64,000 nucleotides of DNA, taken from the IMG/VR virus record IMGVR_UViG_3300037488_003551, positions 1 to 64,000 of that record; one strand, 5' to 3'. Each line of letters opens with the position of its first letter. Within the stretch, counting starts at the first letter, position 1. This DNA is from a virus. Shown here in pieces: positions 6,938 to 53,463 of this stretch. The notes beneath the pieces were generated by a model. That model did no database searches. It saw nothing but the letters and a program-made list of their open reading frames with translations, and was not told the origin of the DNA. The translations under genes were made by a program, and so were the position numbers.

Positions 6938-6953
6938 TTCTTGTACCCAAAAT
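6938..6953 (-). promoter_or_regulatory. Putative phage promoter ATTTTGGGTACAAGAA (GGTAYAAG class)
   Basis: Identical 16-mer at 48369-48384 on the + strand. Confidence 0.6.
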
Positions 6954-6964
6954 CGAGGTCACAT

Positions 6965-9900
6965 ATGAAACTGATACCTATCCTTCAAAACCCCAATGAG
7001 AAGCGTGAGCGCATCCGCGATAAAGTAATTGAAGGACTGACCGAGTCCTTTCCGATTACAGCACGTAATAAAATTATCGAGGTCACGGATGTTTCTTTTA
7101 CTCCGAGAGATTACACCTCGAACGAGCAGAAGATGGCCATCCTTCGGGGAGATTCTCTTTTTGAGACAGCGAAGGGTACGGTACGTATAAAAGATGCGAA
7201 AACAGATAAGGTTTTAGACGAGGCTAAAAATTTCACTCTCGCCCGCGTTCCGTGGTTCACTCCGCGACATACGCTCATCGTTGCTGGAAATGAATATTCG
7301 ATTGCGAACATGGTACGGCCAAAGCCAGGCGTGTACGCACGTAAGAGGGCTAATGGAATCCTCGAAGCTAGTTTTAATACTGTCGGCACCTCGAACTTTA
7401 ATGTCACCATGGACCCGGAGAAGGGAGAACCAGAGCTCGAGTACGGTTCTTCCAAAATACCTCTTTACACAATTCTCCGAGCCTCGGGAATCTCCCATGA
7501 CGCTATCGCTAAAAAGTGGGGTAGTGCACTAGCGAACGAAAATCAGAAGCGTCTTGAAAAGAATCTTCCGCAGCATGTCGACAAGCTTTATCGAAAAGTA
7601 GTTCCTGCTTACGCTATCCTTCCAGATATGACCGTGGACTCCAAGATGGAGGAGGTCCTTGCGCGGTATAAAAAGGCGACGATGGACCCAAAGGTTAATG
7701 AGAAAACCTTGGGAACAGCGTACGGGCATGTGACTCCTGATAGCCTCCTCGACGCTTCGGCAAAGGTGCTTAACATTTTTCGTAATCCCGAGGAGGTCGA
7801 TGACCGCGATAACCTCGATTTTAAATCGTTGCGTTCTGTAGAGGACTTTTTCAAAGAGCGCATTCAGCTAGACGCTCGGGATATCGGTCGACGCGCTGCT
7901 ATAAAAATAGAGAATACACCAGAGGTTCGGAAAGCTATGGCCTCGGGAGCGTTTACACCGGGCCTCGTCAAGTTCATCACAGGCTCTCAGCTCGCGGCAA
8001 TTCCTACACAGACGAATCCGATGGAGCTCATAGATACCGCGGTGCGCGTAACGTCGCTAGGCGAAGGCGGTATCAGCTCTGAACGTGCCATCCCCATGGA
8101 AGCGCGGATGATTCATCCAACACAGATTGGGGCGCTTGACCCTGTCCGTACCCCAGAATCTTTTCGCGCAGGTATCGACGTACGTGCGGCGCTATCGGCT
8201 GCACACGATAAAGATGGAAACATTTTTGTCCCGATGCTTGACACCAAAACGGGGAAACAAACCTACATACGTGCAGGAGAAATTGCAACTTCGACTGTAG
8301 CGTTCCCACAACAGGTTATGAAAGGGAAAATTTCAGCTCTGGTAAATGGCAGAATTGCTACGGTGCAAGCGAATAAAGCCCAGTATCAAATTCCCCATTC
8401 TTCGGTGATGTACGGTCCGACCTCAAACCTCATTCCTTTTATGGAGTCTCTGCAGGGTAATAGACAGCTGATGGGGTCGAAGCATCAGACGCAGGCCATC
8501 TCTCTCGTGGACAGGGAAGCTCCTTATGTGCAGGTGATGTCTCCCAGCGGTAAATCTTTCGAGCACATTATGGCTACGGTTGTGAATCCCACGTCTCCTG
8601 TAGCGGGGACGGTTGAAAAAGTAGACGGAGATTATATCTATATTCGTCCGAATGCTAAGACGGCGGCGGAAACAAAACCCGAGCTTGTCCGAGTTTCGTA
8701 CGATACATATCTCCCTATGGCAGCGAAGACATATCTGAATCATGACGTTACGGTAAAAGCGGGGGACTCCGTAAAAGCGGGAGACATTCTAGCTGAATCT
8801 AACTTCACGAAAGATAAGACGCTGGCCCTGGGTAAGAATCTTTCAGTTGCGTATATGCCCTATTACGGTGCGAATTCAAACGACGCCGTCGTTATCAGTT
8901 CCGGGGCGGCAAAAAAGTTGACGTCTGAGCGTCTCTACAAAATTGTTCTCCCGCGCGACGCTGATATCGTTTTTGACCGAACGAAACATAAGACGTATTA
9001 CGGGCATACATATGGGCACGATTATTACGGAGGAGTAGATGAAGAAGGAGTGGTAAAGCCAGGGGCAAAGATTAATGGGGGAGAGCCTGTTGCTTTTAGT
9101 CTCCGTAAATCTACACTTACTTCCGACGATATTCTTTTGGGGCGTCTGCATAAGTCTCTCGTGCGTCCATTCCGAGACGCAACACAGACTTGGGACCACG
9201 ACCACCCCGGGGAAGTGGTGGATGTCGTTAAGACTCCAAAGAGAATTGCTATAACAATTAAAACGCAAGAGCCTATGCAAATAGGAGACAAGCTCTGCTA
9301 TACCGAGGATACGGAGGTTTTAACAACTAATGGATGGAAATACATTAGCGATATTTCAAAAGAAGATATTTGCTATACACTCGATAGAGAGGGATTCATT
9401 CACCTCTGCCGCCCTACACATTTTCACGCCTATAACTCTGCTGATAAATTATTTTTGGTGCGGTCACAACAAGTGGACCTCTCTGTTACGCTAGACCACG
9501 GACAAGTCGTAAAAAAAGGTGAGGGAAACCAACTCACCCCTTCACATGAATTACTCGATAAACCTTTTCAGTTAATTCGCACAGGTACTTGGGCTCCGGA
9601 GAGAGCGTATGACGCAGATGACGCGTGGTGTGCGCTTATGGGTCTCTACGCCGTAAAAGGGCATACCAGAATTCCCGAACTCGTACAGGGAACTTTTGAG
9701 CATGTTGTTGAAATCTTTCTGCGCGAGAAGCTCCAAGAAGGAGAGAAGTTGTGGTTAGAGGGGATTTTAGGAAAATTGGGAATGACAGATAAGAGCCGTA
9801 TCGACGATGACATTCTTACGATTAATGACCCAGTTCTATATGCAGAGTGTCGGACTCTAGGAGATATCGTCGAACGGCGCCTCCCTAAATCAGTCTTTTC

Positions 9901-12319
9901 TCTAAATGCGGGACAGGCTGGAATAGTTATTGATAGCGCTTTGAAAGCAGCAGGTCACCAGACCGGATGGAGTCGAGATAAACAAGGAGACGGGACGGAT
10001 ACCTGTGTAGTCTCCTCGCGTCAACTTGCGGACGACTTACAGCGCCTGGCCCTCCATGCCGGGTATTCAGCCAATATCGTTGTCCATACGGTAAAACGTC
10101 CGCTTTATACCAAGCGTTACTCGTTACGTTTTTTACGTAAGCGGAGTTTTCCCATCATCAATAACCCGCGGAGTAACAAAAAAAATACGAGGGTAATAGA
10201 TTCTAAAGCTCCTGTGTTCGGAGTAACGATTCCTAACCACACCCTCTACGTGCGCGTCAACGGAAAGCCTGTGTGGTCGGGCAACTCTGGAAGGTACGGG
10301 AACAAGGGCGTGGTCTCGGAGATTGTTCCAGACGACCAGATGATTAAGGACGAGGCTGGAAAGCCCGTCGATGTTCTTCTTACTTCAGCCGGCGTCGTCT
10401 CGCGCGTTAATCCGGCACAGATTATTGAGACTGCTGTAGGTAAGGTCGTAGAGAAGACGGGAAAACCAATTATCGTAGAGAATTTTACCGGTAGGGATAA
10501 CGTCCAGTGGGCCAAAGACCTCTTAAAAGAGCATGGCGTAAAAGATAAAGAGACCGTATTCGACCCGCGGTCAGGTAAAAATATTCCTAATGTTTTTGTG
10601 GGTCGGCAATATATCTTTAAGATGTTCAAATCCACAGATACAAACTACAGCGCTCGCGGTGTGGATACTTACGATGCGAATATGCAGCCTACGAAGGGCG
10701 GTAAAGAGAGTGCGAAGGCCATCGGAAAGATGGAGTTCGACGCGCTTGTTGCCCACAACGCTCGCAATGTATTAAGAGAATCCTCTGTTTTGAAGAGCCA
10801 AAAAAATGACGAGTACTGGAGGGCGTTGCAGCTCGGGTATCCTACTCCTCCACCCAAGACTTCTTTTGCGTCTGACAAGTTTTTCAATATGCTGACGGGA
10901 GCGGGTGTTCGTGTAGACCGCTCGGGTTCGAAGATAGGGCTCGCACCCCTCACAGATTCGGACGTCATGGAGATGTCGGCGGGAGAAGTGAAGGACGCAA
11001 AGCTTGTCAGCTCTAAAAATCTGATGCCGGAAAAAGGAGGCCTATTCGACCCCGCCGTTACGGGTGGAATGAAAGGGACGAAGTGGTCCCATATTTCGCT
11101 GGCCGAGCCTATTATCAATCCCATTTTCAAAGAGCCGACGCGCCGGCTTCTGGGAATGACCGAGTCACAACTAGATACGACAGTGCGAACAAAAGGTATT
11201 GGGTACGTTCGGGACGAGCTCGCAAAAATTGATATCGTTAAACGCGAGAAGGATATGCTCGACGCGGCTAATACGCGTAAGGGAACCCCTCTCGATGACG
11301 CGACTAAGCAGATAAAATATCTGCGTGCGTTGAAGGCTCAAAATCTCACGCCGGATAAGGCCTATATCTCGAGTGTCATCCCTATTCTTCCTCCTATCTT
11401 CCGTCCGGTTCTTCCTGGAAAAGGTGGGCAGGAGCTTATTTACGGGGATATTAATCCTCTCTACAGGGATTTGGTGTACGTAAATAATCAGTTTAAAGAG
11501 CTGAAGAAGTTTGGAAAACTCCCTGAGGAAGAAGCCAAGCTTCGAGGGACGCTGCAGGACGCGGTGGGAGCGGTGTATGGAGTCAATGACCCCATTACAC
11601 AGAAGTCGAAGAGCCGTAATCATAAAGGCTTCCTGACCTATATCGCAGGGCAGGGAAGTCCGAAATACGGATACGTTCACTCGAAGCTTTTAAAGAAGCA
11701 ACAAGACCTGGCGGGGCGTGGAACGATTGTCCCAGATACGACCTTGGGAATGGACGAAGTAGGTCTTCCCGAGAATATGATTTGGACGATGTACAAACCG
11801 TTCCTAATTACTCGGTTGGTGCAACAGGGATATCCGGCATTGCAGGCTAAGGAGATGGTCGACGATAAACATCCCGCAGCGCGTGAGGCGATGATGCGCG
11901 AAACACGTGAGCGTCCAGTTATGATCAACCGCGCTCCGACGTTGCATCGATATAGTATCGTGGGTGCTTATCCGATTCCTGTAGCAGGTAAAACAATTAG
12001 GATAAATCCTTTTACAGAAGTGGGCCTGGGCGCTGATTTTGATGGTGACGCGATAACAATTCACACTCCATCAGGTATTAATGCGATTGAAGACGTAAAA
12101 CGAATGACGCTTTCAAACACGCTCTACACGGATAAAGCTCGCGGTGACTTGTTAGTTGCACCCCAAATGGAAGCAGTCATGGGTCTGGCCCAAGCGACCG
12201 CCACACAATCCACGGGACATGCAAAGGTTTACAAAACCAAAGCAGAGGCAATGGCGGACTACAATTCAGGGAAGATAGGCCTTGGAACGAAGGTCACTAT
12301 TAAGGACCAGCAACTGTGA
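6965..12319 (+). CDS. Phage multisubunit RNA polymerase: beta subunit fused to the N-terminal (catalytic) half of beta'; contains an intein
   Basis: Beta motifs QTNP..R..LGEGG, RTPE, NRQLMGS..Q.QA, LALGKN, NSNDA, GDKL/SGRYGNKG, SRVN, GKMEFDAL; beta' motifs GLFDP, IPILPP..RP, GRGTIVP, NRAPTLHR, GADFDGD. ATG 6965 has a GAGGT SD. Confidence 0.95.
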   Translation: MKLIPILQNPNEKRERIRDKVIEGLTESFPITARNKIIEVTDVSFTPRDYTSNEQKMAILRGDSLFETAKGTVRIKDAKTDKVLDEAKNFTLARVPWFTPRHTLIVAGNEYSIANMVRPKPGVYARKRANGILEASFNTVGTSNFNVTMDPEKGEPELEYGSSKIPLYTILRASGISHDAIAKKWGSALANENQKRLEKNLPQHVDKLYRKVVPAYAILPDMTVDSKMEEVLARYKKATMDPKVNEKTLGTAYGHVTPDSLLDASAKVLNIFRNPEEVDDRDNLDFKSLRSVEDFFKERIQLDARDIGRRAAIKIENTPEVRKAMASGAFTPGLVKFITGSQLAAIPTQTNPMELIDTAVRVTSLGEGGISSERAIPMEARMIHPTQIGALDPVRTPESFRAGIDVRAALSAAHDKDGNIFVPMLDTKTGKQTYIRAGEIATSTVAFPQQVMKGKISALVNGRIATVQANKAQYQIPHSSVMYGPTSNLIPFMESLQGNRQLMGSKHQTQAISLVDREAPYVQVMSPSGKSFEHIMATVVNPTSPVAGTVEKVDGDYIYIRPNAKTAAETKPELVRVSYDTYLPMAAKTYLNHDVTVKAGDSVKAGDILAESNFTKDKTLALGKNLSVAYMPYYGANSNDAVVISSGAAKKLTSERLYKIVLPRDADIVFDRTKHKTYYGHTYGHDYYGGVDEEGVVKPGAKINGGEPVAFSLRKSTLTSDDILLGRLHKSLVRPFRDATQTWDHDHPGEVVDVVKTPKRIAITIKTQEPMQIGDKLCYTEDTEVLTTNGWKYISDISKEDICYTLDREGFIHLCRPTHFHAYNSADKLFLVRSQQVDLSVTLDHGQVVKKGEGNQLTPSHELLDKPFQLIRTGTWAPERAYDADDAWCALMGLYAVKGHTRIPELVQGTFEHVVEIFLREKLQEGEKLWLEGILGKLGMTDKSRIDDDILTINDPVLYAECRTLGDIVERRLPKSVFSLNAGQAGIVIDSALKAAGHQTGWSRDKQGDGTDTCVVSSRQLADDLQRLALHAGYSANIVVHTVKRPLYTKRYSLRFLRKRSFPIINNPRSNKKNTRVIDSKAPVFGVTIPNHTLYVRVNGKPVWSGNSGRYGNKGVVSEIVPDDQMIKDEAGKPVDVLLTSAGVVSRVNPAQIIETAVGKVVEKTGKPIIVENFTGRDNVQWAKDLLKEHGVKDKETVFDPRSGKNIPNVFVGRQYIFKMFKSTDTNYSARGVDTYDANMQPTKGGKESAKAIGKMEFDALVAHNARNVLRESSVLKSQKNDEYWRALQLGYPTPPPKTSFASDKFFNMLTGAGVRVDRSGSKIGLAPLTDSDVMEMSAGEVKDAKLVSSKNLMPEKGGLFDPAVTGGMKGTKWSHISLAEPIINPIFKEPTRRLLGMTESQLDTTVRTKGIGYVRDELAKIDIVKREKDMLDAANTRKGTPLDDATKQIKYLRALKAQNLTPDKAYISSVIPILPPIFRPVLPGKGGQELIYGDINPLYRDLVYVNNQFKELKKFGKLPEEEAKLRGTLQDAVGAVYGVNDPITQKSKSRNHKGFLTYIAGQGSPKYGYVHSKLLKKQQDLAGRGTIVPDTTLGMDEVGLPENMIWTMYKPFLITRLVQQGYPALQAKEMVDDKHPAAREAMMRETRERPVMINRAPTLHRYSIVGAYPIPVAGKTIRINPFTEVGLGADFDGDAITIHTPSGINAIEDVKRMTLSNTLYTDKARGDLLVAPQMEAVMGLAQATATQSTGHAKVYKTKAEAMADYNSGKIGLGTKVTIKDQQL
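9296..10285 (+). mobile_element. Intein (330 aa) with probable degenerate LAGLIDADG homing endonuclease domain
   Basis: Interrupts GDKL|SGRYGNKG; begins CYTEDTEVLT; block B VTLDH; ends VWSGN followed by Ser+1; internal LMGLYAVKG and LADDLQRLAL segments. Confidence 0.92.
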
Positions 12320-13785
12320 CAGATTCTCCGACCATCATCTCTGGAATTAAGAACATCACCAAACAGGATGTGATTGATTATTACAAAGACCCGATGGTGC
12401 GGGAAAACCTTTTGCGCGCTACCGGAGACAAGCCAGTCCTGACAGTGATGCAGCGTGAACCTGGGACGCCTATCTATCGGCGCTATGACAGGAAGAAGCA
12501 GCCCATCCTTTTGAACATGGACTCGCTGGACGACCTCGCTAAACAGCGTACCGTAGAGTTCCACGCTACACTGGGCGAGGGTACTCGAGAAATATGGGTA
12601 GACTTAGACCCAGGTGCGGCTGTATCCCCTGGAAATCTCAAGAGAACCGTTAAGCACGTCGATGACCTTTTGAAGAAGTTACCTGAGGTCAAAGATACCC
12701 GCATCGTCTTTTCAGGTGGGCGCGGCTACCATGTCCGGGCTGAACTCGAGAAAGAACTGAAGACGAACGCTGCCAAGAAGCTCCTACAGAAAACGCTGCA
12801 GCCTTTGTATGACTCGGGGTCGACGCTTGTCGACGTTCCTCCGAGAGGCAATCAGATACGGCTGGATACCTCGACGTTTCATCCAAAAGGGTCTCTGCGA
12901 GCTCCCTACTCTCTGAATGCGACAACTGGCCTTGTGGCGCTTCCCGTTGCGCGTGAGAAGCTAGATACATTCAATCCACAAGCCGATGCGAGTATAAAGA
13001 GCGTCCTCTCTCAAAAAGACATTGGAGAGTTTGCTCCGGGTATCCCTCGTGACCGTACGACGCAGTTGCTTCCGACAGCTTCAGGTAAAAACTGGACGTT
13101 GGCGGTGCAGAAGCACGTTGCGGATAAAGCAGGCCCGCATTGGGACCTTCGACTGGTAGACCCGGAGACACAGTATGCTCATTCTTGGGCTGTTCCTAAG
13201 GCTTCTTTTCCAGACAATAAGCCGCGTTTGGCGTTGCAGATGCCGACCCACAGCGCAGGCTACGCCCTTACTTTCGGGGAAAAAGGACCACAGAAAATTC
13301 AAGAGGGTTATGGCAAGGGAACTGTTGAGATGGCCCACAAAGAGCCGGTGCAGGTGTTAGAAGTCAACCCGAACAAGGTTGTATTCCAGCGCGGCTCCGG
13401 AGACACTCTGGCGATGCATCGAACGAGTGAGAATAAATGGTTGCTCCGAAAGGCGACGAACATGACTGAGAAGACTGCTTTTTACACTGCGGGTTATCGC
13501 ACTGCTCTTTTGAAGTTAGGTGTAGCGGTAACTAAGCCTGTTGGTATGCGGGGAAAAGAAATGTCCCATGGAGAAGGGAATCGTCCTCTTGAAAGTTCTG
13601 ACACGCATCTTCCCGCGGGGCAAGTGGCGATGATGTTCCAGGGTCTTCCGAACGCTAAGCGGCGTGGAGGCGGAGTCACTCTTGAAAATGTGCCTGCGGT
13701 GGGAGACAACAACGCTGAATGGGGTCCCGCACAAGATGTTATGCAATTCAACGGCGCCTCTCCTTATCTATCAGGACGCGAGTAA
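12316..13785 (+). CDS. LigD-like protein: AEP primase-polymerase domain plus 3'-phosphoesterase domain, no ligase domain
   Basis: AEP motifs VEFH, WVDLDPG, FSGGRGYHV, IRLD, APYSL; PE motifs VQKH.A...HWDLRL, SWAVPK, RLA...TH, YGKGTV. Confidence 0.9.
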   Translation: MTDSPTIISGIKNITKQDVIDYYKDPMVRENLLRATGDKPVLTVMQREPGTPIYRRYDRKKQPILLNMDSLDDLAKQRTVEFHATLGEGTREIWVDLDPGAAVSPGNLKRTVKHVDDLLKKLPEVKDTRIVFSGGRGYHVRAELEKELKTNAAKKLLQKTLQPLYDSGSTLVDVPPRGNQIRLDTSTFHPKGSLRAPYSLNATTGLVALPVAREKLDTFNPQADASIKSVLSQKDIGEFAPGIPRDRTTQLLPTASGKNWTLAVQKHVADKAGPHWDLRLVDPETQYAHSWAVPKASFPDNKPRLALQMPTHSAGYALTFGEKGPQKIQEGYGKGTVEMAHKEPVQVLEVNPNKVVFQRGSGDTLAMHRTSENKWLLRKATNMTEKTAFYTAGYRTALLKLGVAVTKPVGMRGKEMSHGEGNRPLESSDTHLPAGQVAMMFQGLPNAKRRGGGVTLENVPAVGDNNAEWGPAQDVMQFNGASPYLSGRE

Positions 13786-15590: not shown

Positions 15591-16088
15591 ATGTACCAGT
15601 ACGGATATAATGCGGCCCTGCATCAGTTGGGTTTAGAGAAGAACGCAGCTTTCTTTCCAGGAGCGGCAGCTCGATTCATGCCGAAACTCAAATCTTTTGG
15701 TAAGGCTGTCGGCACAAATCTTTTTGGACAACCTAAAAAGTTCGTAGGTGAGTTGCGGTCTGGAACGGCATTTGGTAAAGACAGTCTACTTGCAGAAGGA
15801 TTTAAAGCGCCAAAACTCTGGCAAAAAGCGCTCATGTATGGTCTTCCCGCGGCTTCAGCTGTTCAGACTTTGCGGAGTGATGACCCAGATAAAGCAGGGT
15901 CTATTGGAGGTTTAATCGGTGGTACAGCTTTAAGTACAGCTGCTTTTGGACCTTTTGGTATGCTAGGAGCGATACCTACAAGTATGGCAGGAGAATTTAT
16001 CGGTAAGCGTCTCGTACACGGTACGCAGCGTATATTGGGAGTTGGAAATCAACAGGCTCCGCAATATACTTCTTTGCAACAACGGTAA
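15591..16088 (+). CDS. Glycine-zipper putative internal-head protein with class A leader
   Basis: MYQYGYNAALHQLGLEKNAA; GGLIGG hydrophobic segment. Confidence 0.6.
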   Translation: MYQYGYNAALHQLGLEKNAAFFPGAAARFMPKLKSFGKAVGTNLFGQPKKFVGELRSGTAFGKDSLLAEGFKAPKLWQKALMYGLPAASAVQTLRSDDPDKAGSIGGLIGGTALSTAAFGPFGMLGAIPTSMAGEFIGKRLVHGTQRILGVGNQQAPQYTSLQQR

Positions 16089-16138: not shown

Positions 16139-16591
16139 ATGAATCCTGAACTCATTAAACAGGCGTACGCGTACGGTGCCGCGGTAGCTCTTCAGGAACT
16201 CGGCTTTAGTGCGCAACAAGCACAGGCAGGCGGAGTAAAGCTTGCTTCTGAGAAGATGGCTGAAGGCGAAGAAATGAAAGATCCTGCTCTGTGGCCTGCG
16301 GCTATGTTTGGACCTACGGGTGCAGCGATTGCTGCGCCTGAAGGCAAGAGGATGAGCGCCTTTGGACGTACACTAGGAGGTCAAACTCTTGGTATGCTTG
16401 GGGGCGGCGCTGTTGGTGGTGGTCTGGGTGCTGGTGTCGGTGCTCTAGCGGGACTTCTTAGCCGTGGAAAATTTAGACCAGGGCAAGGTGCTGCTCTTGG
16501 TGGATTGGGTGGTGGATATCTCGGTATGGGTGGCGGCGGTATGTACGGTGCGGCAAAGGGATATCAGAGCGCCCTAGACAAAGAGGAATAA
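16139..16591 (+). CDS. Glycine-zipper putative internal-head protein
   Basis: KQAYAYGAAVALQELG..KLASEKMA; long GxxxG arrays. Confidence 0.6.
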   Translation: MNPELIKQAYAYGAAVALQELGFSAQQAQAGGVKLASEKMAEGEEMKDPALWPAAMFGPTGAAIAAPEGKRMSAFGRTLGGQTLGMLGGGAVGGGLGAGVGALAGLLSRGKFRPGQGAALGGLGGGYLGMGGGGMYGAAKGYQSALDKEE

Positions 16592-32327: not shown

Positions 32328-35021
32328 ATGCCTCTATCTAGACCGAACACTGTCGTTTATCAGGAATATGCGGACCTCTCCGTTGTTCCCGCTACCCCAT
32401 TCTTGAACACCCTCATCGTTGGTCCTTGCTATCAGCTGCTGGACTACCTCGATGACAAGGCGGATTGCGCCGCAGGAGAATACGGTACCCTGCAAATGAA
32501 TAACCCACGCACGTCCCCGACGGCTGCGGTGGTTATCGCCACTCCTCCTGAGCTAGAAGCAGGTGCCATTCTCGAAGATAACAGCGTGAAGATTTTCTTC
32601 GATGAGGTGCAGGTCGCATTGAAAGAGGTCACGGGTACTCCTGGAGATGATGCTGGACTTTATTACATCAGCGATAATCTGTTTGCCACTGTGAATGCTG
32701 ATGGCGTACACATCGGTAAACAGTATGCGCAAGCAGGCGATACGCTCATCTGTGAAACATCGGTTACTGCGGATTTCATCAAAACCATAAAAGAATTGGC
32801 CTACACGTTTTATGGTCCGGTACTCGATTTCACAACGTGGGGAGTAGATACCGGCGACATTATTACGGTTGAGAATGATGCAGCTTCTCCTTCTCGCAAT
32901 GGTACCTACACCGTAAAAAAGAAGTATATCGTCGGAGGTTCTGTCCTCGCTACAGCCATTGAAATCGAAAATGCAGCAGCCCTAGAAGGTGACGTAGCAA
33001 ATGCGGACATCACTATCCGCTCTTCGACGGGAACTCTGCGACACACCACCATAGGTGGAGCTCCTGTTTCTTTGGGTGATTGGTGCAATCTCCGCGTAAC
33101 AGAAGATTTCTCGGCTGGACATCCGGTCAGTTGTCTCTGGCGCATCGAGCGTCAACTCAACGATGTCGAACTTGCTTCTACGGATATCACGGTGAACAAC
33201 ACCACGAAGACCGTAACCGTTAAAGCTGGCGTGACAGCAATTGTGAGTACGACCATTGGAGCCAAGCCTGTTACGTTCGCTGAGATGTACATGGAGTACG
33301 CTGCGCTGCGGCAGGACCTCCAAAACGTGGCCGAGGTTTCGTCTTCTTCCGAGGCGATTGCTCTCCTTGGAAAATACGATGCACGTAATCCGCTCTGCGT
33401 AGGTGTGCATGTAGCTCTATATAACACCACGACGCCCATCAAGGTCTATGGTCTCGCCGCGGATACGTTGGCCGGGTACACGGATTTTGTGGAGCGCACC
33501 AGTCATCTCAGCGACATCTACGCGGTGGTCCCACTGACCTACGATACGAGCGTTATCGGTTATCTCAAGGACGCGTGGGAGCGTTACGCTGATGCAGACA
33601 TCGTTCTTCAAACAGGTATTAAGCAGAAATTTCGGACGACCATCGGCGCTGTGGACCTCGTCACACAGAGCGAAGTCATCTCCGCGACCGCAGGCTCGTC
33701 CACGCTGACGAAAGCGGGAACAACTCCGGCAGGAAATTACACGCTGACTCTTTCTGGTCTTTCAGGTCAAACAGCGGATTTCAGTGCTTCTGGCGTTCTT
33801 CCGGGAGACATTGTCAATGTTAAAATTGGTGGCGTAACTGCTGGACCATTTACGGTAGCGCATGTAAATACGGCACTCATTCTTGAAACAGAAGAAGCCC
33901 TCACAGGTTTAGGTATAGCGCGTGACGCAGCCGATACTTTGGATATTACAGACCCAACAGGTATTATCCATCGTTTTACGGCTTTGGTTTATTCGGTAGG
34001 TGTCAAGGGGTTTACTCTTGGTGCATCCGTTCTCGACGCCCTTTATCTCACCCTGAGCTCTTCGACCTCCACGTTCATCACGGACGGCGTGGTCCCGGGC
34101 GACCTGCTCCAGATTCCGACCGACCCCGAGTCCACTTCTTGGACGACCTACGACACCTGGGTCATCGCAACTGTCGATAGCGAGACGCGCGTCACGGTGG
34201 TGAACGGCGGGAACAACACGGCCGACCTACAAAACGAGCTCCCGCATCTCATCAAGCGCACCGCGGCGACTGACCGTGTGGTCTCTACTAGCACGGTCTA
34301 CTTCCGCATCAAGCGCAACATGACCAAGACCGAGCAGGTCAACTACATGCTTGCGGTGGCTCAGAGCTTGGACAGCAAGCGTGCTCTTCTCTGCTACCCC
34401 AACAGCGTGGACATCACCGACCTTATCGATGGTAGTCTGACACGAACGGGTACGGACCCCGAGGTCGCCGCGGCGCAGCCAGGCTACTATCTCGCCTGCC
34501 TCGTTGGCGGCCAGACGGCGAGCCAGCCTTCGCACCAGGGCTTCACGAACCTGGGCGGCAACGGCATCGACCGCATTTACAACTCGAGTGACTACTTCAG
34601 CGAGGAGCAGCTCACCAACCTGTCGAATGGCGGCGTGTACGTCTTCGTGCAGGATGCGCCGGCCGCGCTGCCCTACACCATCCACGAAGTGACGACCGAT
34701 GTTCTCTCCCTCGAGACCGGTGAATACATGCACGTGAAGAATTTGGACTATCTCTCGATGTCTTTCCTCGAGACGCTGCGTCCCTTCATTGGCAAGTGGA
34801 ACATCACACCGGATGCTATTCAGTTCATCACGCAAGCTTTGTATGCGACCATCAACACGCACAAAACTGCATACCGCGCGAGGATTGGAGCGCCGATGAT
34901 TGACGGGACGGTACGCACCGTCTTCCAAAATACGGATGTCTCAGAAGATCGCATCGAAGCGTACGTCGACGCTGACTTGCCAACGGTCCTTAACACCCTC
35001 GGCCTACACTTGGTGGCGTGA
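32328..35021 (+). CDS. Contractile tail sheath protein
   Basis: N-terminal RPNTVVYQE..IVGP; C-terminal QGFTN, LSNGGVYVF, VTTD, E....NLDY, FIGKWNIT, PTVLN; 897 aa with insertion domains. Confidence 0.85.
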   Translation: MPLSRPNTVVYQEYADLSVVPATPFLNTLIVGPCYQLLDYLDDKADCAAGEYGTLQMNNPRTSPTAAVVIATPPELEAGAILEDNSVKIFFDEVQVALKEVTGTPGDDAGLYYISDNLFATVNADGVHIGKQYAQAGDTLICETSVTADFIKTIKELAYTFYGPVLDFTTWGVDTGDIITVENDAASPSRNGTYTVKKKYIVGGSVLATAIEIENAAALEGDVANADITIRSSTGTLRHTTIGGAPVSLGDWCNLRVTEDFSAGHPVSCLWRIERQLNDVELASTDITVNNTTKTVTVKAGVTAIVSTTIGAKPVTFAEMYMEYAALRQDLQNVAEVSSSSEAIALLGKYDARNPLCVGVHVALYNTTTPIKVYGLAADTLAGYTDFVERTSHLSDIYAVVPLTYDTSVIGYLKDAWERYADADIVLQTGIKQKFRTTIGAVDLVTQSEVISATAGSSTLTKAGTTPAGNYTLTLSGLSGQTADFSASGVLPGDIVNVKIGGVTAGPFTVAHVNTALILETEEALTGLGIARDAADTLDITDPTGIIHRFTALVYSVGVKGFTLGASVLDALYLTLSSSTSTFITDGVVPGDLLQIPTDPESTSWTTYDTWVIATVDSETRVTVVNGGNNTADLQNELPHLIKRTAATDRVVSTSTVYFRIKRNMTKTEQVNYMLAVAQSLDSKRALLCYPNSVDITDLIDGSLTRTGTDPEVAAAQPGYYLACLVGGQTASQPSHQGFTNLGGNGIDRIYNSSDYFSEEQLTNLSNGGVYVFVQDAPAALPYTIHEVTTDVLSLETGEYMHVKNLDYLSMSFLETLRPFIGKWNITPDAIQFITQALYATINTHKTAYRARIGAPMIDGTVRTVFQNTDVSEDRIEAYVDADLPTVLNTLGLHLVA

Positions 35022-35470
35022 TGCAAAACGAGTTTTACAAAGCGGGCTACAACGACGCGCTGGTGAAAATGGGAGGCTTTGGAAGCGCTATTGCCAAAGG
35101 CCTTCAGACTGCGGGCGGATGGTTAAAAGGTCTCGGAACAAAAGTGCCAGCGGGTCCTGCTCAGATGTCACTTCCTGGTATGGCCCCTGCCGCGGCAAAA
35201 CCGGGGTGGTTTGCGGGAAAAGCTCAAGGCGCAGCACAGGGCCTAGGCAATTCTCTCAACAATCTCGCAGCTGCTCCGGGACAAACCCTCTGGCAGGGCG
35301 CCGGCAACTTCGGAAAGAACATGCTCGGGATGGGTCAGGCGAATACAACAAGCGGCGTTTTGGGCCGCGGTGCCATGGGCGTTGGCCTAGTGGGTGGCGC
35401 TACGGGTGGTTTCGGAAATAGATCGCAACCGAGACCGGGACAGCTCCCCGGCCCGGGACAGATACAATAG
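35018..35470 (+). CDS. Gly-rich putative cargo protein with class A leader, between sheath and tube
   Basis: EFYKAGYNDALVKMGG; C-terminal glycine zipper. Confidence 0.55.
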   Translation: MMQNEFYKAGYNDALVKMGGFGSAIAKGLQTAGGWLKGLGTKVPAGPAQMSLPGMAPAAAKPGWFAGKAQGAAQGLGNSLNNLAAAPGQTLWQGAGNFGKNMLGMGQANTTSGVLGRGAMGVGLVGGATGGFGNRSQPRPGQLPGPGQIQ

Positions 35471-39831: not shown

Positions 39832-42402
39832 ATGAAAAAGTCAGCCCTTCAAATCGCAGATGCAGTAAGAGCCAAACCTGAAGAACCTAGCGCGTTACGG
39901 AGGGCTGCACCTTGGCTTACCGCGGCCGGGACTGGAGCTCTAGGGTATGGCCTTTTGCGCCGAAGGAGCTTCGCTCCTATTGGGACACAACTGCGGTCTC
40001 TCCAAGAAGCGGCAAAGAATAAGCCTTTTAGTATAGCGACTTCGGGTGGAACGCCTTGGGCACAAAAAATTCGCTCCATGATTATGGGTGCTCCTGTCCA
40101 TACGACCGGAGAAAAGGTGAAAGGAACGGTTCTTCATCACACACCAAACCCTAAAGGTGGGGGTGATATTAATATAAATGCGGGAAATATTACAGACGCT
40201 CTTCAAGACAAAGCTGTCTTTGATCGTGTTATGCGTGAAGGTGTTGGTGCGGGACCTGGAATGGCTTCTTCTCTCCCAAATACAATGCGTCTTGATGAAG
40301 CACTAAAACGCGTAGGAGGAGACCCAAAGCGCTTAAAAGAAATCTATCCAGATTTTATGTTAAAAGCCCGAAGCGAATCAATGGGAAGGGGTATTTTTAA
40401 ATCGTTAGATGACCCCGGCGTAAATGAAGCTATTCAAAATCCAAGTCAATTTATCTTCCAAGAGAAGATGCCCATAAAGAATGAGTTCCGCGTACATACT
40501 ATAGATAACGAGCCGTTTACGGCGACGCACCGTTTTATGCCCAATAAAACGTTACGTGGTTTATGGAATCGAGTGGCTGGTGGAGGAGGCGGAGCTTTCG
40601 TTCCTCTGGTGGGAAAGAGACGAAGAGCTCTCCATGATTTTATTAGGCAGAGCACGGCGCATCTAAAACCAGCGGACGGTAAAAGCCTCTCAGACGTAGG
40701 AGAGTCTATGCATGTTGCCTGGGACGTTGCGGAGCTTCCTGATGGCACGTTCAAGCTTATTGAAGCCAACCCTGTACCGGGTACTATGATGAACCCGGGT
40801 ATTGCACAAAAACTTCAAAAACAAATAACTGGAAGATGGTCTAGACCCGTTGCAGCTTTAGGAGGAACTGCTTTAGCAGGCACATCTGGAGTTGCCGCTA
40901 ATAAGATTTTAGGCGGTCCTTCAAACAATGTAGCGGAGACATCTCCTATGAAAAAAACAGCGGACCAAATCAGTTGGAGCGTTCTGTTAAAGGTCGCAGC
41001 CGGAGCGGAAGGTAATCCCGAAATATGGCGCAAAATGGTAGACCGTATCGCTAAAAGCAAAGGTATACCAAAACCTACTGATGCTCAATTCCAAGAGATG
41101 TTTCCTAAGGATTTTGCAACCTCGGGAAAAACATTAGAAGATGCCATACAAGGTTCTGCTTGGTTTAAGCAGGGCACTTCAAGTGGCATGGGAGCTCAAG
41201 GTAGCAATTGGAATCGGGGATCTAGCGGTGGCGCTTGGGGACCAGGAGCAGATGATGCAGTCGCTGCTACGGAAGCTGCGCGCCAAAGAGAGTTGATGGC
41301 TTTAAGTCTTGTGAGCGGCATGCATAATGTAATGGGTTTAGGCGCGGCTGGAAGTGGAATTGGTACGGCTGCTACTGGGATTCATAGCACAACACAGGCT
41401 AAAACTCCAGAGGAACGCGCAGCTGTTTTAGGCCTGAGTGGAGGACTCGCAGGTTATTCTGGAGGGTCTGCTTTCGATAATTTTAGAAAAGCAAAATTAT
41501 ATAAAGACCTTCAAAATGCTATGTCCAATCCTACTGGTCCGAATTATTCGCAACGAGTAACAGATATATCTAATAAAATTATGAGAAAGCCTAAAGCATT
41601 TTCTCCTCAGCGTATTGGCGGATTAGCAGGTGTTGGTCTGGGTCTAGGCGGAGCTGCACTTTGGAATTATTTAGCCAGAGATAAACCTATGAGTAAGGCA
41701 GCGGCTATTACACCAGAAGAAATAGCTACAGGTTTAAGCGGACGAGCTGCACGTCCAGAAATTACGCTAGCGGAAATCATGGAACTTCGTAACAAACTTC
41801 GCCAAGAAGAATATGCTAAGCGGAGAGGGACACCTATAAAGTGGGGTATAGGTGGTGGCTTATTAGGCGCTGCTATTGGCGCTCTTTCGAGTAGAAAAAA
41901 GGGCTTAGGTAAATTACCCAGAACTTTAATTGAGGCAGGATTAGGAGCCGGTTTAGGCGGCTTTTTAGGAGAAACAAGTCGCAGCTTGGACAGTGATGCG
42001 ATGCTAGACCGCGGAAATATTCTAGGAAGAATAGCTAGAACAGGAAACTTGAAGCTAGTAGCGGATTCAGAAAATGCAAAAGATTACGCTCCCTTCGCAA
42101 TTGGAAGTCAACCAGGCGCTAAACCCTTAACGGAAGAGGAGACACACGCTCTTCGTAATCAAGTGTTAAAACAACGAAGTTTAGGCGGCGCAGTTAGGGG
42201 TGCTCCTTTCGCAGCTCTATCCGGAATACTCGGCGCCGCTGCTAAAGCTCCTCCTGGGGCCATAGCAGAATCTATGGCTTTCCCGCTTTTAACTGGAACG
42301 TACCTCGGAGCAAATAGAGCAGTAGACCAATCAAATACGTTAGTAGATTTGCACAACAGGGGGTATGGCGACCTAGCACGCATCATCCAAAAAGATTGGT
42401 AG
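39832..42402 (+). CDS. Three-module polyprotein: ATP-grasp (RimK-like) ligase plus two glycine-zipper modules
   Basis: FMLKARSESMGRGIF, IFQEKM, EFRVH, AWDV, LIEANPVPG (ATP-grasp); internal modules paralogous to the 42410 and 39043 ORFs. Confidence 0.75.
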   Translation: MKKSALQIADAVRAKPEEPSALRRAAPWLTAAGTGALGYGLLRRRSFAPIGTQLRSLQEAAKNKPFSIATSGGTPWAQKIRSMIMGAPVHTTGEKVKGTVLHHTPNPKGGGDININAGNITDALQDKAVFDRVMREGVGAGPGMASSLPNTMRLDEALKRVGGDPKRLKEIYPDFMLKARSESMGRGIFKSLDDPGVNEAIQNPSQFIFQEKMPIKNEFRVHTIDNEPFTATHRFMPNKTLRGLWNRVAGGGGGAFVPLVGKRRRALHDFIRQSTAHLKPADGKSLSDVGESMHVAWDVAELPDGTFKLIEANPVPGTMMNPGIAQKLQKQITGRWSRPVAALGGTALAGTSGVAANKILGGPSNNVAETSPMKKTADQISWSVLLKVAAGAEGNPEIWRKMVDRIAKSKGIPKPTDAQFQEMFPKDFATSGKTLEDAIQGSAWFKQGTSSGMGAQGSNWNRGSSGGAWGPGADDAVAATEAARQRELMALSLVSGMHNVMGLGAAGSGIGTAATGIHSTTQAKTPEERAAVLGLSGGLAGYSGGSAFDNFRKAKLYKDLQNAMSNPTGPNYSQRVTDISNKIMRKPKAFSPQRIGGLAGVGLGLGGAALWNYLARDKPMSKAAAITPEEIATGLSGRAARPEITLAEIMELRNKLRQEEYAKRRGTPIKWGIGGGLLGAAIGALSSRKKGLGKLPRTLIEAGLGAGLGGFLGETSRSLDSDAMLDRGNILGRIARTGNLKLVADSENAKDYAPFAIGSQPGAKPLTEEETHALRNQVLKQRSLGGAVRGAPFAALSGILGAAAKAPPGAIAESMAFPLLTGTYLGANRAVDQSNTLVDLHNRGYGDLARIIQKDW

Positions 42403-42409
42403 AAAAGAT

Positions 42410-43408
42410 ATGTACAAAACTGCCGAACAGATCAGTTGGAATATCCTACTAAAAGCGGCTGCGAGTGAAGGTGGTAACCCTGAACTGTGGCGCAAGATGG
42501 TAGACCGTATAGCCAAAAGTAAGGGAATGCCAGCGCCTACTGACGCCGAGTTTGCAGAGATGTTTCCTCCTGATTTCGCGACTTCCAGTAAAACAATGGA
42601 AGACGCCATCCAGGGGTCCAAGTGGTTTAACAAGGCAAATGCAGGTCCATCTGCGTCCTCTCCGAGTTCTAATCCGTACGCGGATTACAATCCACGTTCG
42701 AGTTCAAGTTCGAGACAATACTCGTCTCCATTTGATGACTTTTTTTCAAGGTATAACCAGCAGGCAAGACAAAATTCGAATTGGTGGGATAAGACGTGGG
42801 ACGCAGAGAGTCAAGCACGAGCCGAAGCACGTAAAGCTGAGCAGCAAGCGAGTGACGCGCAATGGGAAGAAAGAAGACAGCGGCAAACTCGCGAGTCCGC
42901 AGACCGGGAAAAAGCATACCAAGAAAAACAAAAAGGTTATAGCCGCAGTACCTCGGCATCGACCGAGTCAAATAAGTACTATGACCAAGCTCGCGGTATG
43001 AAGAACCGTGCCGCCGCATATACGGCAGGGCTCCCAACTGCATTGGGTATGAGCGGATTAGCCATTGGAGCTGCGACTGAGGACAAAGATAAACGTAATG
43101 TAATTATGGGAGGTACAGGCGCAGGCGCAGGGGCCTCTATGGGATATGGAAGTGTCCTCGAAGAGAACGCTCGGCGGTTTAGGAATGCTATAAAACCTAT
43201 TCCTTTTTCTGTTGATGAAGGCTTTCAAGTTATGAAGCCTTACAATAAAATGAAAGCTACTCCCCATACAGTTATGGGTGGACTTCTTGGATTAGGTTTG
43301 GGTCTGGGTGGGTCTCACTTGATACAAAAAGCCTTCTATGACCAAAAGAAGACCCCTATGCGAAAAGCCGCTTCTGAAATTGCGGCATCGATTCTTAGAA
43401 ATTATTGA
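42410..43408 (+). CDS. Glycine-zipper cargo protein with class B motif at both ends
   Basis: MYKTAEQISWNILLKAAA...; C-terminal MRKAASEIAASIL. Confidence 0.65.
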   Translation: MYKTAEQISWNILLKAAASEGGNPELWRKMVDRIAKSKGMPAPTDAEFAEMFPPDFATSSKTMEDAIQGSKWFNKANAGPSASSPSSNPYADYNPRSSSSSRQYSSPFDDFFSRYNQQARQNSNWWDKTWDAESQARAEARKAEQQASDAQWEERRQRQTRESADREKAYQEKQKGYSRSTSASTESNKYYDQARGMKNRAAAYTAGLPTALGMSGLAIGAATEDKDKRNVIMGGTGAGAGASMGYGSVLEENARRFRNAIKPIPFSVDEGFQVMKPYNKMKATPHTVMGGLLGLGLGLGGSHLIQKAFYDQKKTPMRKAASEIAASILRNY

Positions 43409-44823
43409 GTCGTATCTCTCTGTAGAAGTCGCATTAATTGATTATTCAAATCTTTTTTGTTCTTCGACATATCTGCTAATACATCTTCTACTCCAATTGG
43501 GTCCTTTTTTGTTATTCTCTGCCAAAGGTTGGCTTGTGGATGCGTGACGTATTGCTGGACAAGAACGTTACGCTTGTCCTCAGGTAAATCTGTGTGTGAA
43601 CCATGCCGAATCGCACGTCCAATAACCTGGTCGAGTTTTTCTTCATTCCAGTGAGGCTCTAAAACTTGGACCAGCCGCGTCCCTTTTAAGTCCAGACCTT
43701 CGCCACCTGCGGATGAGAGGAGCAAGGCCCGCAATTTCCCAGCGTTGTAATCGTCGATGGCAGCCTGGCGCTCTCCTTTTGGTACTGACCCCGTAAAAAG
43801 TTTGCTAGGAATTCCCTGCGATTCAAGTTGCTGCTGGTATTCGGATAGGTTGTTTAGATAATTGGAATATACGATGGCTTTGGAAGTAGGGTCAGACTTA
43901 ATACGCTTAGCTAGTTCTTGAACCGCGTACATTGTTTTGGGAGAGGCTTCGCCACGAACATACTTATTAGTGGAACCTGATATCTGTCTAGCCTGCGATT
44001 CAAATTTATTAAACGCTGAAAGTTCTTTCCCAGCAGGCAAAGCGCCATGCTCCAACTTTTTACGCAGACTTCGTGGAAGTGTTCCCCATGCGGCAGCGTG
44101 TAATCGCGTTTGCAGATCCGACATAGGAACGCGTACACGCTCGTCCATACGCGTTGGGAAATCCCCACTCGTATTGTCTTGATAATCTACCCACTTTTGG
44201 AGGACGCCCTTGAGCTCATCCGTATTTTTCAATACAGGCTTCATAGGCTTTCCTCGAAGGCGGTACCACCAACTTGGATTTCTTGGGGGTTTACTGATAT
44301 ATTTTTCGTTGAAAGTAGCTCCCACAGGAAGAACAGATTTACCTGCTGCGATGTTGACAAGCGGAGCTATATCGGAAGGCCTGTTATATACAGGCGTTGC
44401 AGTCAAAAGCATCCGTTTAGCCGCGGGATATTGCGCGAGAAGTTTATTAAGACCTGTAGATGTCTCGCGAGCTTTATGCGCTTCGTCTACAACTAAAAGG
44501 TCAGAGGGGATTGTTTCACCTGATAGCGCATCTCTCTGCTGACTTCGTACCTGGATATTATTAGGACCTTTGAGATGCTTGGCAATTTCCTTTTGGTAGT
44601 TGGGAACCAAAGATGCGGGAGCTAAGACGGTCGTATTTCCACTTTGTCCCGCAGCTGCCGCGAGGGAACTTAACGTTTTTCCTGTGCCTAACCCGTGTGC
44701 TACAACCAGCCCCGGCTGTTTTTTAAGACGGTCTACTACGCGCTGTTGATGCGGGAGTAACTGCGTTAAAACTTCCGCTGCAGTTTTATTGAATATTCCA
44801 GAAGGAATGGTCTTCGGTTTCAT
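43402..44823 (-). CDS. Second SNF2-family helicase, with N-terminal KTAA site
   Basis: HGLGTGKT, DEAH, LTATP, GGEGLDL, QVIGRAIRHGSH; leaderless start after TAAAATT. Confidence 0.9.
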   Translation of the reverse strand: MKPKTIPSGIFNKTAAEVLTQLLPHQQRVVDRLKKQPGLVVAHGLGTGKTLSSLAAAAGQSGNTTVLAPASLVPNYQKEIAKHLKGPNNIQVRSQQRDALSGETIPSDLLVVDEAHKARETSTGLNKLLAQYPAAKRMLLTATPVYNRPSDIAPLVNIAAGKSVLPVGATFNEKYISKPPRNPSWWYRLRGKPMKPVLKNTDELKGVLQKWVDYQDNTSGDFPTRMDERVRVPMSDLQTRLHAAAWGTLPRSLRKKLEHGALPAGKELSAFNKFESQARQISGSTNKYVRGEASPKTMYAVQELAKRIKSDPTSKAIVYSNYLNNLSEYQQQLESQGIPSKLFTGSVPKGERQAAIDDYNAGKLRALLLSSAGGEGLDLKGTRLVQVLEPHWNEEKLDQVIGRAIRHGSHTDLPEDKRNVLVQQYVTHPQANLWQRITKKDPIGVEDVLADMSKNKKDLNNQLMRLLQRDTTQ

Positions 44824-52402: not shown

Positions 52403-52960
52403 TCAGCCGAACAATCCGAGGGCTTCTTGGAGTTGGGGCTGTACCGACCGATTTTGGAAGAGGCTGTTTAGGATAGGGGTCTGCTGCTGAGCTTGGAGGA
52501 GTTGGTCCATTTGACGAAGTTGGGTCGCTCGCTCAGGGAAAGCTCCCGCGAATTGATTCTGCTGAACGATATTGACCGGAGTCTTAGGAGCAGCTTGAAG
52601 GCGTATGGCTGCAGGGTCATAACCTGGGAGATTCTTAGCTCGGGCTGCAGCCGGTACGCTTGCAGCTGGGACTTGTTCTGCTCTCGTTCTGAATGGAGCT
52701 TGCGGAACAACTGTTCTAGACTTTAATTCTTCCATGAATTGAAGTTGCGTAGGGGTAGGAGCACCGGGTTTTACCGTAGCACGTGCAAGCGGATTCAGTC
52801 CCGTATTTTGAACGGATGTCGCCGCGGAGCCTGGAGGAAGTGGCGTCTTCCGGGAGAAGAGTGTTTTAGCTGCGCGTGTAACTGAATCTAGGATGCCAGC
52901 TTCCTTCTGGAATCCTAGGTCTACTAGTGCTTGTGCGTACCCTACTTGCTGGAAGTTCAT
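52403..52960 (-). CDS. P/Q/A-rich cargo-like protein with class A leader
   Basis: MNFQQVGYAQALVDLGFQKEAG. Confidence 0.6.
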   Translation of the reverse strand: MNFQQVGYAQALVDLGFQKEAGILDSVTRAAKTLFSRKTPLPPGSAATSVQNTGLNPLARATVKPGAPTPTQLQFMEELKSRTVVPQAPFRTRAEQVPAASVPAAARAKNLPGYDPAAIRLQAAPKTPVNIVQQNQFAGAFPERATQLRQMDQLLQAQQQTPILNSLFQNRSVQPQLQEALGLFG

Positions 52961-53463
52961 TGGTAACCCATTGGCATCTGTTGCTGGCCGTATTGCTGCA
53001 TGGGTTGGCTAGGAGGTGGAGCTCCCATACCCGTTACATACCCTAAGCCACCTGCTCCGGCACCAGCTAGACCCACACTCATGAGGGGATTTCGTCGGAT
53101 ACGGTTCAGCATCCCCCCGCCCGCTGCAGCTTGAGGTGGAGGCGCCGAGGCGGCAGGAGACGCGGGAGGAGGAGCTCCCGGGGGCGCAGCCGGAGCCGCT
53201 GTTTGTCCTGCAGGTGCTTTGGGCTTAACACCTGCGAAGGCGTCCTCTGCCCGTCCTGTTGCGTTGGCTCCAGGAGGTTTACGAGGAGTCCGACCAGCTG
53301 CGAACCTCTCGACATCGTCCATGGCCGTAACTCCTGGACCTGCTTTTGGAACCGCTTTCGGCGCTCGACTAAAAAGCTGCTTTAACCAACCAAAGCCTGC
53401 CGCTGTTTTCTCAAGCCCCAAATCTGACAGGGCTGAATGGTATCCAATTTCAATCAAATTCAT
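52957..53463 (-). CDS. P/A-rich glycine-zipper cargo-like protein with class A leader
   Basis: MNLIEIGYHSALSDLGLEKTAAG; GGAGG SD and TAGAATT upstream; start re-assigned to 53463. Confidence 0.65.
   Translation of the reverse strand: MNLIEIGYHSALSDLGLEKTAAGFGWLKQLFSRAPKAVPKAGPGVTAMDDVERFAAGRTPRKPPGANATGRAEDAFAGVKPKAPAGQTAAPAAPPGAPPPASPAASAPPPQAAAGGGMLNRIRRNPLMSVGLAGAGAGGLGYVTGMGAPPPSQPMQQYGQQQMPMGYQ

Follow-up and report, generated by a model that had tools for sequence, protein, structure and literature searches.

The DNA analysed here (the window) comprises 64,000 nucleotides, positions 1–64,000 of IMG/VR record IMGVR_UViG_3300037488_003551, and derives from an uncultured sediment phage with a genome of ~173 kb (172,892 bp, complete-looking, CheckV 97%). 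Between the genes for the two halves of a split multisubunit RNA polymerase (RNAP), the window carries a 489-codon gene for a protein that joins an archaeo-eukaryotic primase (AEP)-type polymerase domain (Pol) and a 3'-phosphoesterase domain (PE), both of the LigD type, to a C-terminal tail. Comparison with relatives indicates that the tail is a complete protein of ~105 amino acids (aa), native to this slot and encoded by a core gene, to which Pol-PE has been added as a dispensable part. With slightly less than even confidence, it is proposed that an accessory LigD-type enzyme, co-translated with the RNAP, is carried to the phage head by fusion to the slot protein and would serve in mending phage DNA.

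The order of the two enzyme domains, given as AEP Pol followed by PE in an earlier note made from the letters of the sequence, was borne out by Pfam, by profile matches to structures in the PDB, and by fold matches. Pfam LigD_Prim-Pol (PF21686) matches residues 58–232 with 62.3 bits against a gathering cut-off of 27.4. LigD_N (PE, PF13298) matches residues 265–339 with 27.7 bits, which is under the cut-off of 31.1; the PE domain of relatives scores 40–44 bits against the same model. A profile built from 56 relatives matches the PE structures 3p4h, 3p43 and 3n9b, with E values from 7.5e-16 (3p4h) to 9e-7, and matches PolDom and Prim-PolC of Mycobacterium tuberculosis with E ~1e-4. The AlphaFold model has a mean confidence (pLDDT, predicted local distance difference test) of 84.9, with both enzyme domains above 90. 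Using Foldseek, the model was aligned to the LigD PolDom structures of M. tuberculosis and Pseudomonas aeruginosa (2r9l, 3pky and 2fao) with E ~1e-11 to 1e-12 (4e-12 for M. tuberculosis LigD PolDom) and template modelling (TM) scores of 0.66–0.70. The best fold match of the PE domain is 3p4h of Candidatus Korarchaeum (TM 0.85, root-mean-square deviation 1.9 Å).

Among 56 sequences with 37–89% identity to the query, the AEP residues D96, D98 and D184, together with G134, G137, R182 and R195, are invariant, as are all of the PE residues listed in Table 1. The counterparts of H267, H275, D277, R279, H312 and Y316 in the PE active site of P. aeruginosa are H42, H48, D50, R52, H84 and Y88. The histidine of motif II varies (H in 34 sequences, Y in 22). 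H83, conserved in 55 of the 56, is no more than a candidate for the ribose-discriminating histidine of PolDom (PMC7072297). The active sites are intact and the enzyme looks catalytically competent; the sequences further indicate that it is under selection. The NCBIfam LigD models score far below their cut-offs (TIGR02778, 43.6 bits against 214.7; NF007210, 45.5 against 989), and hence the match is not at equivalog level. Some 100 clusters of ~490-aa Pol-PE proteins are known from metagenomes, and no PHROGs family matching the enzyme was found.

Neither a ligase domain nor Ku had been seen beside the enzyme, and this holds for the protein and, beyond the window, for the whole 172,892-bp genome. 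The protein gave no match to the ligase models PF01068 and PF04679, and the genome none to PF01068, PF04679, PF01653, PF09414 or Ku (PF02735). A phmmer search of the whole genome with the ligase domain of P0104, a protein from a sister clade, was likewise negative. The genome includes no ATP- or NAD-dependent DNA ligase and no RNA ligase. The suggestion that the enzyme repairs cuts made by restriction nucleases or Cas9 is doubtful, because clean 3'-OH/5'-P ends call for a ligase and for synapsis by Ku, neither of which is phage-encoded, and not for a 3'-phosphoesterase. The domain set would be better suited to dirty nicks, short gaps or damaged termini than to clean cuts.

The GTG codon at 12316–12318 is the only possible start of the gene because an in-frame TAA lies at 12301–12303; it is preceded at a distance of 9 nt by AAGGA. 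This codon overlaps the TGA (12317–12319) of the 1792-aa upstream RNAP gene, which encodes β fused to the N-terminal half of β' (β/β'-N), in a GTGA arrangement. At the other end, the TAA of the Pol-PE gene (13783–13785) overlaps, as TAATG, the ATG (13785) of the gene for the C-terminal half of β' (β'-C). Translational coupling to both RNAP genes, as claimed previously, can therefore be read in the sequence. A promoter and terminator scan of the three-gene region gave no signal exceeding that of shuffled sequences between the genes. The frame offsets among the three open reading frames (ORFs) differ between relatives (−1/−1 here, +1/−1 in L002); a single frameshifted chain was hence ruled out, and the ORFs are taken to be coupled cistrons. 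The Pol-PE gene is placed in a late-type head operon, and no multisubunit RNAP locus besides this one was found in the genome. The β'-C product matches Rpb1 domain 5, which in cellular β' holds the bridge helix and the trigger loop.

A scan of IMG/VR returned 61 loci, 33 of them with a Pol-PE ORF. The ORF lies between the RNAP halves in 31 of these, and the other two are on contigs that end before β'-C; thus the predicted order of RNAP-N, Pol-PE and RNAP-C fits all 33 of the loci retrieved. In six assemblies that were looked up, a PE enzyme (Pol-PE in five, PE-ligase in the sixth) is located between genes for β/β'-N of ~1450–1490 aa and β'-C of ~600 aa, downstream of a ~578-aa gene in the portal position. 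Sister lineages have other enzymes in the slot: PE-ligase at six loci, with ligase motif I (KVDG) present, and PE with other partners at four. Further variants are GNAT-Pol-PE, Pol-NUDIX-PE, and Pol-HD-PE, the last placed in the slot by homology. The sizes of these are 1211 aa (Pol-NUDIX-PE), 939 aa (Pol-HD-PE) and 656 aa (GNAT-Pol-PE) (relatives P0131, P0133, P0096 and P0094), and one 657-aa variant has a glycine-rich insert with an internal tag-like AYDKGFKRAALKTA between Pol and PE. No full Pol-PE-Lig protein was found in the slot among the longer homologues.

Four more PE-ligase genes adjoin a fully fused β-β' gene. Since PE genes occur near fused β-β' genes in other lineages, the association between PE and RNAP reaches past the clade with split RNAPs. 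At L063, L070, L071, L075 and L014, PE-ligase or PE with GNAT was observed within a few kb of a fused β-β' RNAP of ~1600–2000 aa. A tblastn search of 50,697 phage records detected no Pol-PE gene in cultured phages. The nearest cultured relatives, Salmonella phage Arash and Vibrio phages D181, D148 and D69, have a β'-C that is ~32% identical to that of the window. Their RNAP is split too, with unrelated small genes in the slot and neither a LigD module nor the tail protein.

The tail, the last 107 residues of the protein, opens with K386-T387-A388, followed by FYTAGYRTALLKLG (389–402). It includes three conserved motifs: FYxxGYxxALxKLG, LPAGQLAxxLQ, and, towards the end, W..P...G(A/P)SP. The Pol-PE of deep relatives stops right after the PE domain, and a separate ORF of 90–104 aa that is collinear with the tail precedes β'-C. 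A hidden Markov model (HMM) of the tail matches only this ~100-aa ORF in those relatives. A homologue of the tail, fused or free, directly precedes β'-C at 48 of the 50 split-RNAP loci of the clade, among them all PE-ligase loci that reach β'-C; none was found in Arash, Vibrio phage D181 or phages with a fully fused RNAP. Pfam has no family for the tail or for the small tagged proteins described below. Free homologues of 107, 107 and 98 aa were recovered from 1.84 billion representatives, and these align residue 1 to residue 1 (1–106 to 1–106) with the stretch that begins at M383. The gene had been described as carrying a packaging tag in its C-terminal tail. The KTA site and the motif are present as described; the tail itself is a whole ~105-aa protein and not merely a tag.

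At two loci, L081 and L082, a 107-aa tail gene is the sole gene between the RNAP halves. Their β'-C proteins share 82.8% and 76.7% identity, respectively, with that of the window, and so match or exceed Pol-PE-bearing relatives such as L019 (81.2%) and L020 (64.0%). In a β'-C tree made with a quick search, L081 and L082 are nested within the clade that has Pol-PE plus the tail (7-row clade, Shimodaira–Hasegawa-like approximate likelihood ratio test, SH-aLRT, 100), and L081 pairs with L019 (SH-aLRT 98). At L081:5954-6324, the first five and last eleven codons of Pol-PE (VADSH / ENKWLFRKAAN) remain in frame before the Met of the tail, a remnant that is, by its sequence, the scar of an in-frame internal deletion of Pol-PE. 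Pol-PE is regarded as accessory because two close relatives deleted it and kept the tail gene.

The slot of deep relatives also holds a protein of 183–231 aa (Table 1) with hydrophobic helices, a stretch rich in Ala and Pro and a start resembling a signal peptide, and several small glycine-rich proteins that bear the tag.

The tail may also be produced on its own. Of 62 Pol-PE proteins with the tag, 52 have a Met among the eight residues that precede it, compared with 14% expected from composition. Counted from this junction Met, tails are 98–108 aa long, which matches the size of the free proteins. The codons upstream of the Met often encode K-E-G or K-E-A, giving AAGGAGG-like sequences at 5–9 nt. 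A Shine–Dalgarno (SD)-like motif precedes the Met at 16 of 19 loci; at some loci the nearest Met falls inside the PE domain. The fusion and the free small protein are probably both made, the latter via an internal start at the conserved Met.

The peptide at the start of the tail recurs elsewhere. Five ORFs in this genome contain the strict motif G[YFW]..A[LFIVM]..[LMF]G, compared with ~0.1 expected from a rough hand estimate based on composition. Apart from the tail start, it is N-terminal in four small proteins (starting at 15591, 35018 and, on the minus strand, 52960 and 53463), and a variant is found at 16139. A tag HMM that was trained solely on tails and small ORFs of other phages recovers the N-termini of all five small proteins with E values from 4e-4 to 0.055. 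Among relatives, the tag is C-terminal to PE in 27 of the 33 Pol-PE ORFs, at the extreme N-terminus of the PE-ligase P0104, directly before the EFAPGIP linker, and just before PE in four related PE-ligase ORFs. The tag is a portable module, because it adjoins PE on either side in different enzymes. The shared peptide that was noticed earlier is therefore real, being carried by five small proteins here and by Pol-PE and PE-ligase enzymes of relatives. The sequence [LF]-x-K-x-A regularly comes after N-terminal tags (LGLEKNAA, LGFQKEAG, LGLEKTAA), as in the proteins encoded at 15591–16088, 52403–52960 (−) and 52957–53463 (−) and in relatives, an arrangement that fits a putative layout of tag plus cleavage site.

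The Pol-PE enzyme contains no cysteine, and neither do 83 of 98 family members. Cysteine makes up 0.04% of residues in the family, as compared with 1.17% in ORFs of the genome of at least 150 aa. In the β/β'-N gene, all six cysteines are inside a 330-aa intein (nt 9296–10285, borders GDKL/C...N/SGRYGNKG), so that the spliced 1462-aa chain has none; β'-C has exactly four, which form a conserved cluster. The tagged small proteins are also mostly Cys-free, and the RNAP of relatives is likewise Cys-poor (1 Cys in the 1525 aa of Arash Gp206). Gp206 was the most-detected protein in an Arash virion preparation, with 3516 spectra, and Gp216 gave 1210 spectra (PMC10585845); both are homologues of the RNAP chains of the phage studied here. 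The enzyme, the RNAP and the tagged proteins would form one compositional class, a correlation that fits ejected cargo.

The intein sits within the conserved GDK...RHGNKG motif of RNAP β, and the chains of intein-free relatives are 1450–1490 aa long. Large Cys-free proteins of 856, 473, 332, 496 and 1211 aa are encoded at 39832–42402 (+), 43402–44823 (−) and 42410–43408 (+) in the window and at 94244–95734 and 126957–130592 of the genome. Those of 856, 473, 496 and 1211 aa bear leaders. Several members of the set start with a KTA-type leader (MKKTAHQIA..., MKKSALQIA...), and the set is a candidate cargo class.

In the proposed mechanism, the AEP polymerase would extend a primer with ribo- or deoxyribonucleotides at ends or short gaps, and the phosphoesterase would remove 3'-phosphates and trim 3'-ribonucleotides. 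This accessory enzyme would have been grafted onto the N-terminus of the ~105-aa core protein sited before β'-C of the split RNAP, and its translation from the head operon would accompany that of both RNAP chains. The small protein and its N-terminal portable peptide (FYxxGYxxALxKLG) probably bring the fusion into the pathway of the RNAP, most likely one of packaging in the head and co-delivery with the DNA. Early in infection, the enzyme would then most likely heal dirty 3' ends and fill short gaps in the incoming DNA of the phage itself, allowing that DNA to be transcribed and replicated. Sealing would fall to a host ligase in this lineage, and in sister lineages the slot itself includes a ligase. 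The modular variants with ligase, NUDIX and HD domains appear to argue for end processing over transcription. The previous proposal of an injected end-repair enzyme stands as far as the competent domains and the presence of an RNAP homologue in Arash virions are concerned; packaging of Pol-PE itself is something we infer, as are internal initiation, substrate and timing. A wider reading is more doubtful, namely that the portable peptide and the small core protein load optional repair enzymes (Pol-PE, PE-ligase, and the NUDIX, HD and GNAT variants) into the virion beside the Cys-free RNAP, as an injected repair kit that would act before the first transcription.

Several observations weigh against delivery of the enzyme with the DNA for mending it. 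The deepest Pol-PE relatives (P0090, L044 and L045) have neither tag nor tail, and the tag therefore cannot be the sole route. The internal ATG of the window (13462) is preceded by a weak SD sequence, AAAGG with an 8-nt spacer, and the AlphaFold confidence of the tail is 45–74. Cys depletion is presumed, under no established rule, to mark ejected proteins. The only available proteome is that of Arash, a relative with a 32% identical β'-C and without Pol-PE, and its list of 116 proteins may include carry-over (PMC10585845). Complete repair relies on the host, given that no ligase or Ku is encoded. Finally, the enzyme might act on RNA instead of DNA.

The alternative that survives best, though it is considered unlikely, is that the enzyme is not packaged, and is made late with the head proteins to act in the cell on replicated DNA before or during packaging, for example to trim RNA-primed ends and fill gaps in concatemers. 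The late-type head operon, the lack of a tag in the deepest Pol-PE relatives, and the fact that packaging is itself presumed would all suit such an enzyme. Delivery in the virion is favoured over it by the tag and the extreme Cys depletion that link the enzyme to the RNAP and to the small tagged proteins, by its fusion to a protein tied to the RNAP split, and by the virion association of the homologous RNAP in Arash.

Repair of RNA as a counter-defence is distinctly improbable. Here, the enzyme would heal 3'-phosphate or 2',3'-cyclic-phosphate ends left by host ribonucleases on tRNA or transcripts, like T4 Pnkp/Rnl1. PE is the invariant module of the slot variants, NUDIX, HD and ligase partners occur in RNA end-healing systems too, and some relatives have lost this accessory enzyme, a pattern often seen with defence-related genes. 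Against this, the ligase of the sister lineages matches the DNA-ligase family PF01068 and not an RNA ligase (P0108 has a weak, sub-threshold DNA-ligase OB match), the Pol domain is nearest to polymerases of nonhomologous end joining (NHEJ) and gap filling that act on DNA primer-templates, and no RNA ligase is present in this genome.

A working partnership with the RNAP, in which the enzyme would process or extend the 3' ends of RNA made by the RNAP, for instance turning transcripts into primers for DNA synthesis, is marginally less probable again. It would account for the translational coupling to both RNAP genes and for the fusion, at the split, to a small protein that accompanies only split RNAPs, and AEP polymerases are known in general to extend RNA primers. 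The two close relatives that deleted Pol-PE kept both the RNAP and the small protein, however, and an obligatory form of the functional partnership that the earlier note had offered is therefore unlikely. In addition, sister lineages have a ligase in place of Pol, and the RNAP of Arash and the Vibrio phages occurs without any LigD module.

That the enzyme is the replicative primase of the phage is very improbable: it has the AEP fold, some relatives are named 'DNA primase' by JGI, and the genome gave no match to DnaB_C, Toprim_4 or DNAG_N, but a DnaG-type CHC2 zinc ribbon occurs in a 1229-aa protein that adjoins the family A DNA polymerase, and the Pol-PE gene belongs to the head operon, joins the polymerase to PE and can be dispensed with in close relatives. 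The replication module is located beyond the window (genome 160840–168004, minus strand; L079), its family A DNA polymerase being a 1170-aa protein with uracil-DNA glycosylase-like and exonuclease domains and an intein. A gpA-type large terminase is encoded beside the module, at 159213–160838.

Table 1. Positions of the Pol-PE-tail gene, its parts, the adjoining RNAP genes and the tag-bearing small proteins in the window, and of a slot protein in deep relatives.
Feature	Position	Strand	Basis or remarks
RNAP β fused to N-terminal half of β' (including DFDGD)	6941..12319	+	Pfam Rpb2_6, Rpb2_3, Rpb1_1, Rpb1_2
Pol-PE-tail gene	12316..13785	+	489 aa/codons open; domain, conservation, model and fold matches
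AEP primase-polymerase domain, LigD type, ~residues 10–235	12343..13020	+	PF21686; D96, D98, D184; motif II SGGRGYH
Linker EFAPGIP and LigD 3'-phosphoesterase domain, ~residues 237–382	13024..13461	+	PF13298; Q265, H267, H275, D277, R279, H312, Y316
Tail, fused copy of ~105-aa slot protein	13462..13785	+	Homologues, collinear alignment; candidate nested ORF from M383 (ATG 13462)
Portable tag peptide KTAFYTAGYRTALLKLG	13471..13521	+	Motif and HMM matches
RNAP β' C-terminal half, 600 aa	13785..15587	+	Pfam Rpb1_5; four Cys, conserved cluster
Small Cys-free protein, N-terminal tag MYQYGYNAALHQLGLEKNAA	15591..16088	+	Motif, HMM
Small Cys-free protein, N-terminal variant tag	16139..16591	+	HMM E 0.055
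Small Cys-free protein, N-terminal tag FYKAGYNDALVKMG	35018..35470	+	Motif, HMM
Small Cys-free protein, N-terminal tag	52403..52960	-	Motif, HMM
Small protein, N-terminal tag MNLIEIGYHSALSDLGLEKTAA	52957..53463	-	Motif, HMM
183–231-aa slot protein	L005:11670-12266, L003:12016-12576, L009:12617-13168, L007:11739-12434		Deep relatives

To our knowledge, LigD modules have been known only as bacterial and archaeal enzymes of end joining and excision repair. In the phages described here, they occupy an RNAP operon in modular form, conserved yet optional, and are joined to a small native protein. A search of the literature on LigD, phage and virion RNAP found no description of a LigD-type Pol-PE in a phage RNAP operon, nor does a paper on RNAP-encoding Caudovirales (PMC7481178) mention the gene. 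Should the enzyme enter the cell with the DNA, these phages would carry their own DNA-end repair at entry, which would bear on the longevity of virions in sediments and on the survival of damaged genomes. Virion cargo of this kind, loaded by piggybacking on a nested gene, would be a new class. The candidate cargo-addressing peptide and the piggyback route might be reused for loading enzymes into capsids, and extreme Cys depletion is a possible computational marker of ejected proteins.

The enzyme shares the AEP Pol and 3'-PE, with the same catalytic residues and folds, with bacterial LigD (M. tuberculosis Rv0938, Pol-PE-Lig; P. aeruginosa PA2138). Its domain order is that of actinobacterial LigD, and NF007210 aligns over both domains. 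Unlike bacterial LigD, it has no ligase domain, is found in a genome without Ku, scores far under the NCBIfam equivalog cut-offs, sits in an RNAP/head operon and is fused C-terminally to a phage protein. The archaeal stand-alone Pol and PE proteins (Methanocella paludicola 5dmu and 5dmp; Candidatus Korarchaeum PE 3p4h) likewise show that Pol and PE can function apart, with no ligase fused to them, but those organisms encode a ligase and Ku, both of which are missing from the phage genome. Mycobacteriophages Omega and Corndog reportedly encode Ku and use the host LigD to circularise. Like them, the phage studied here would exploit the NHEJ toolbox for its own genome ends, but from the opposite side: Omega and Corndog supply Ku and rely on the LigD of the host, and this phage supplies Pol-PE and has neither Ku nor ligase. 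A second LigD-like AEP polymerase, mycobacterial Prim-PolC (5op0 and 6sa0), gave fold matches down to E 3e-10. It belongs to the Prim-PolC/LigC excision-repair complex and acts on short gaps without Ku (PMC5663958). In contrast to Prim-PolC, the phage enzyme has a fused PE and no LigC-type partner, and the fit to PolDom is better (TM 0.66–0.70 as compared with 0.54–0.56).

The location of the RNAP genes in a structural module is shared with virion RNAPs (N4 gp50, the virion RNAP of phiKZ/SPN3US, and Arash Gp206/Gp216), of which the Arash homologues are abundant in virions (PMC10585845). None of the virion RNAP operons has been described with a LigD-type Pol-PE, and in Arash and Vibrio phage D181 the slot is filled by small genes that are unrelated. 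The tag resembles the capsid-targeting sequences of T4 internal proteins in being a short portable peptide common to several unrelated small proteins, and differs from them in having no sequence similarity to known targeting sequences. As in the nested C/Nu3 genes of phage lambda, the enzyme would share its terminus with a separately made small protein of the head operon, for which the ORF from M383 is the candidate.

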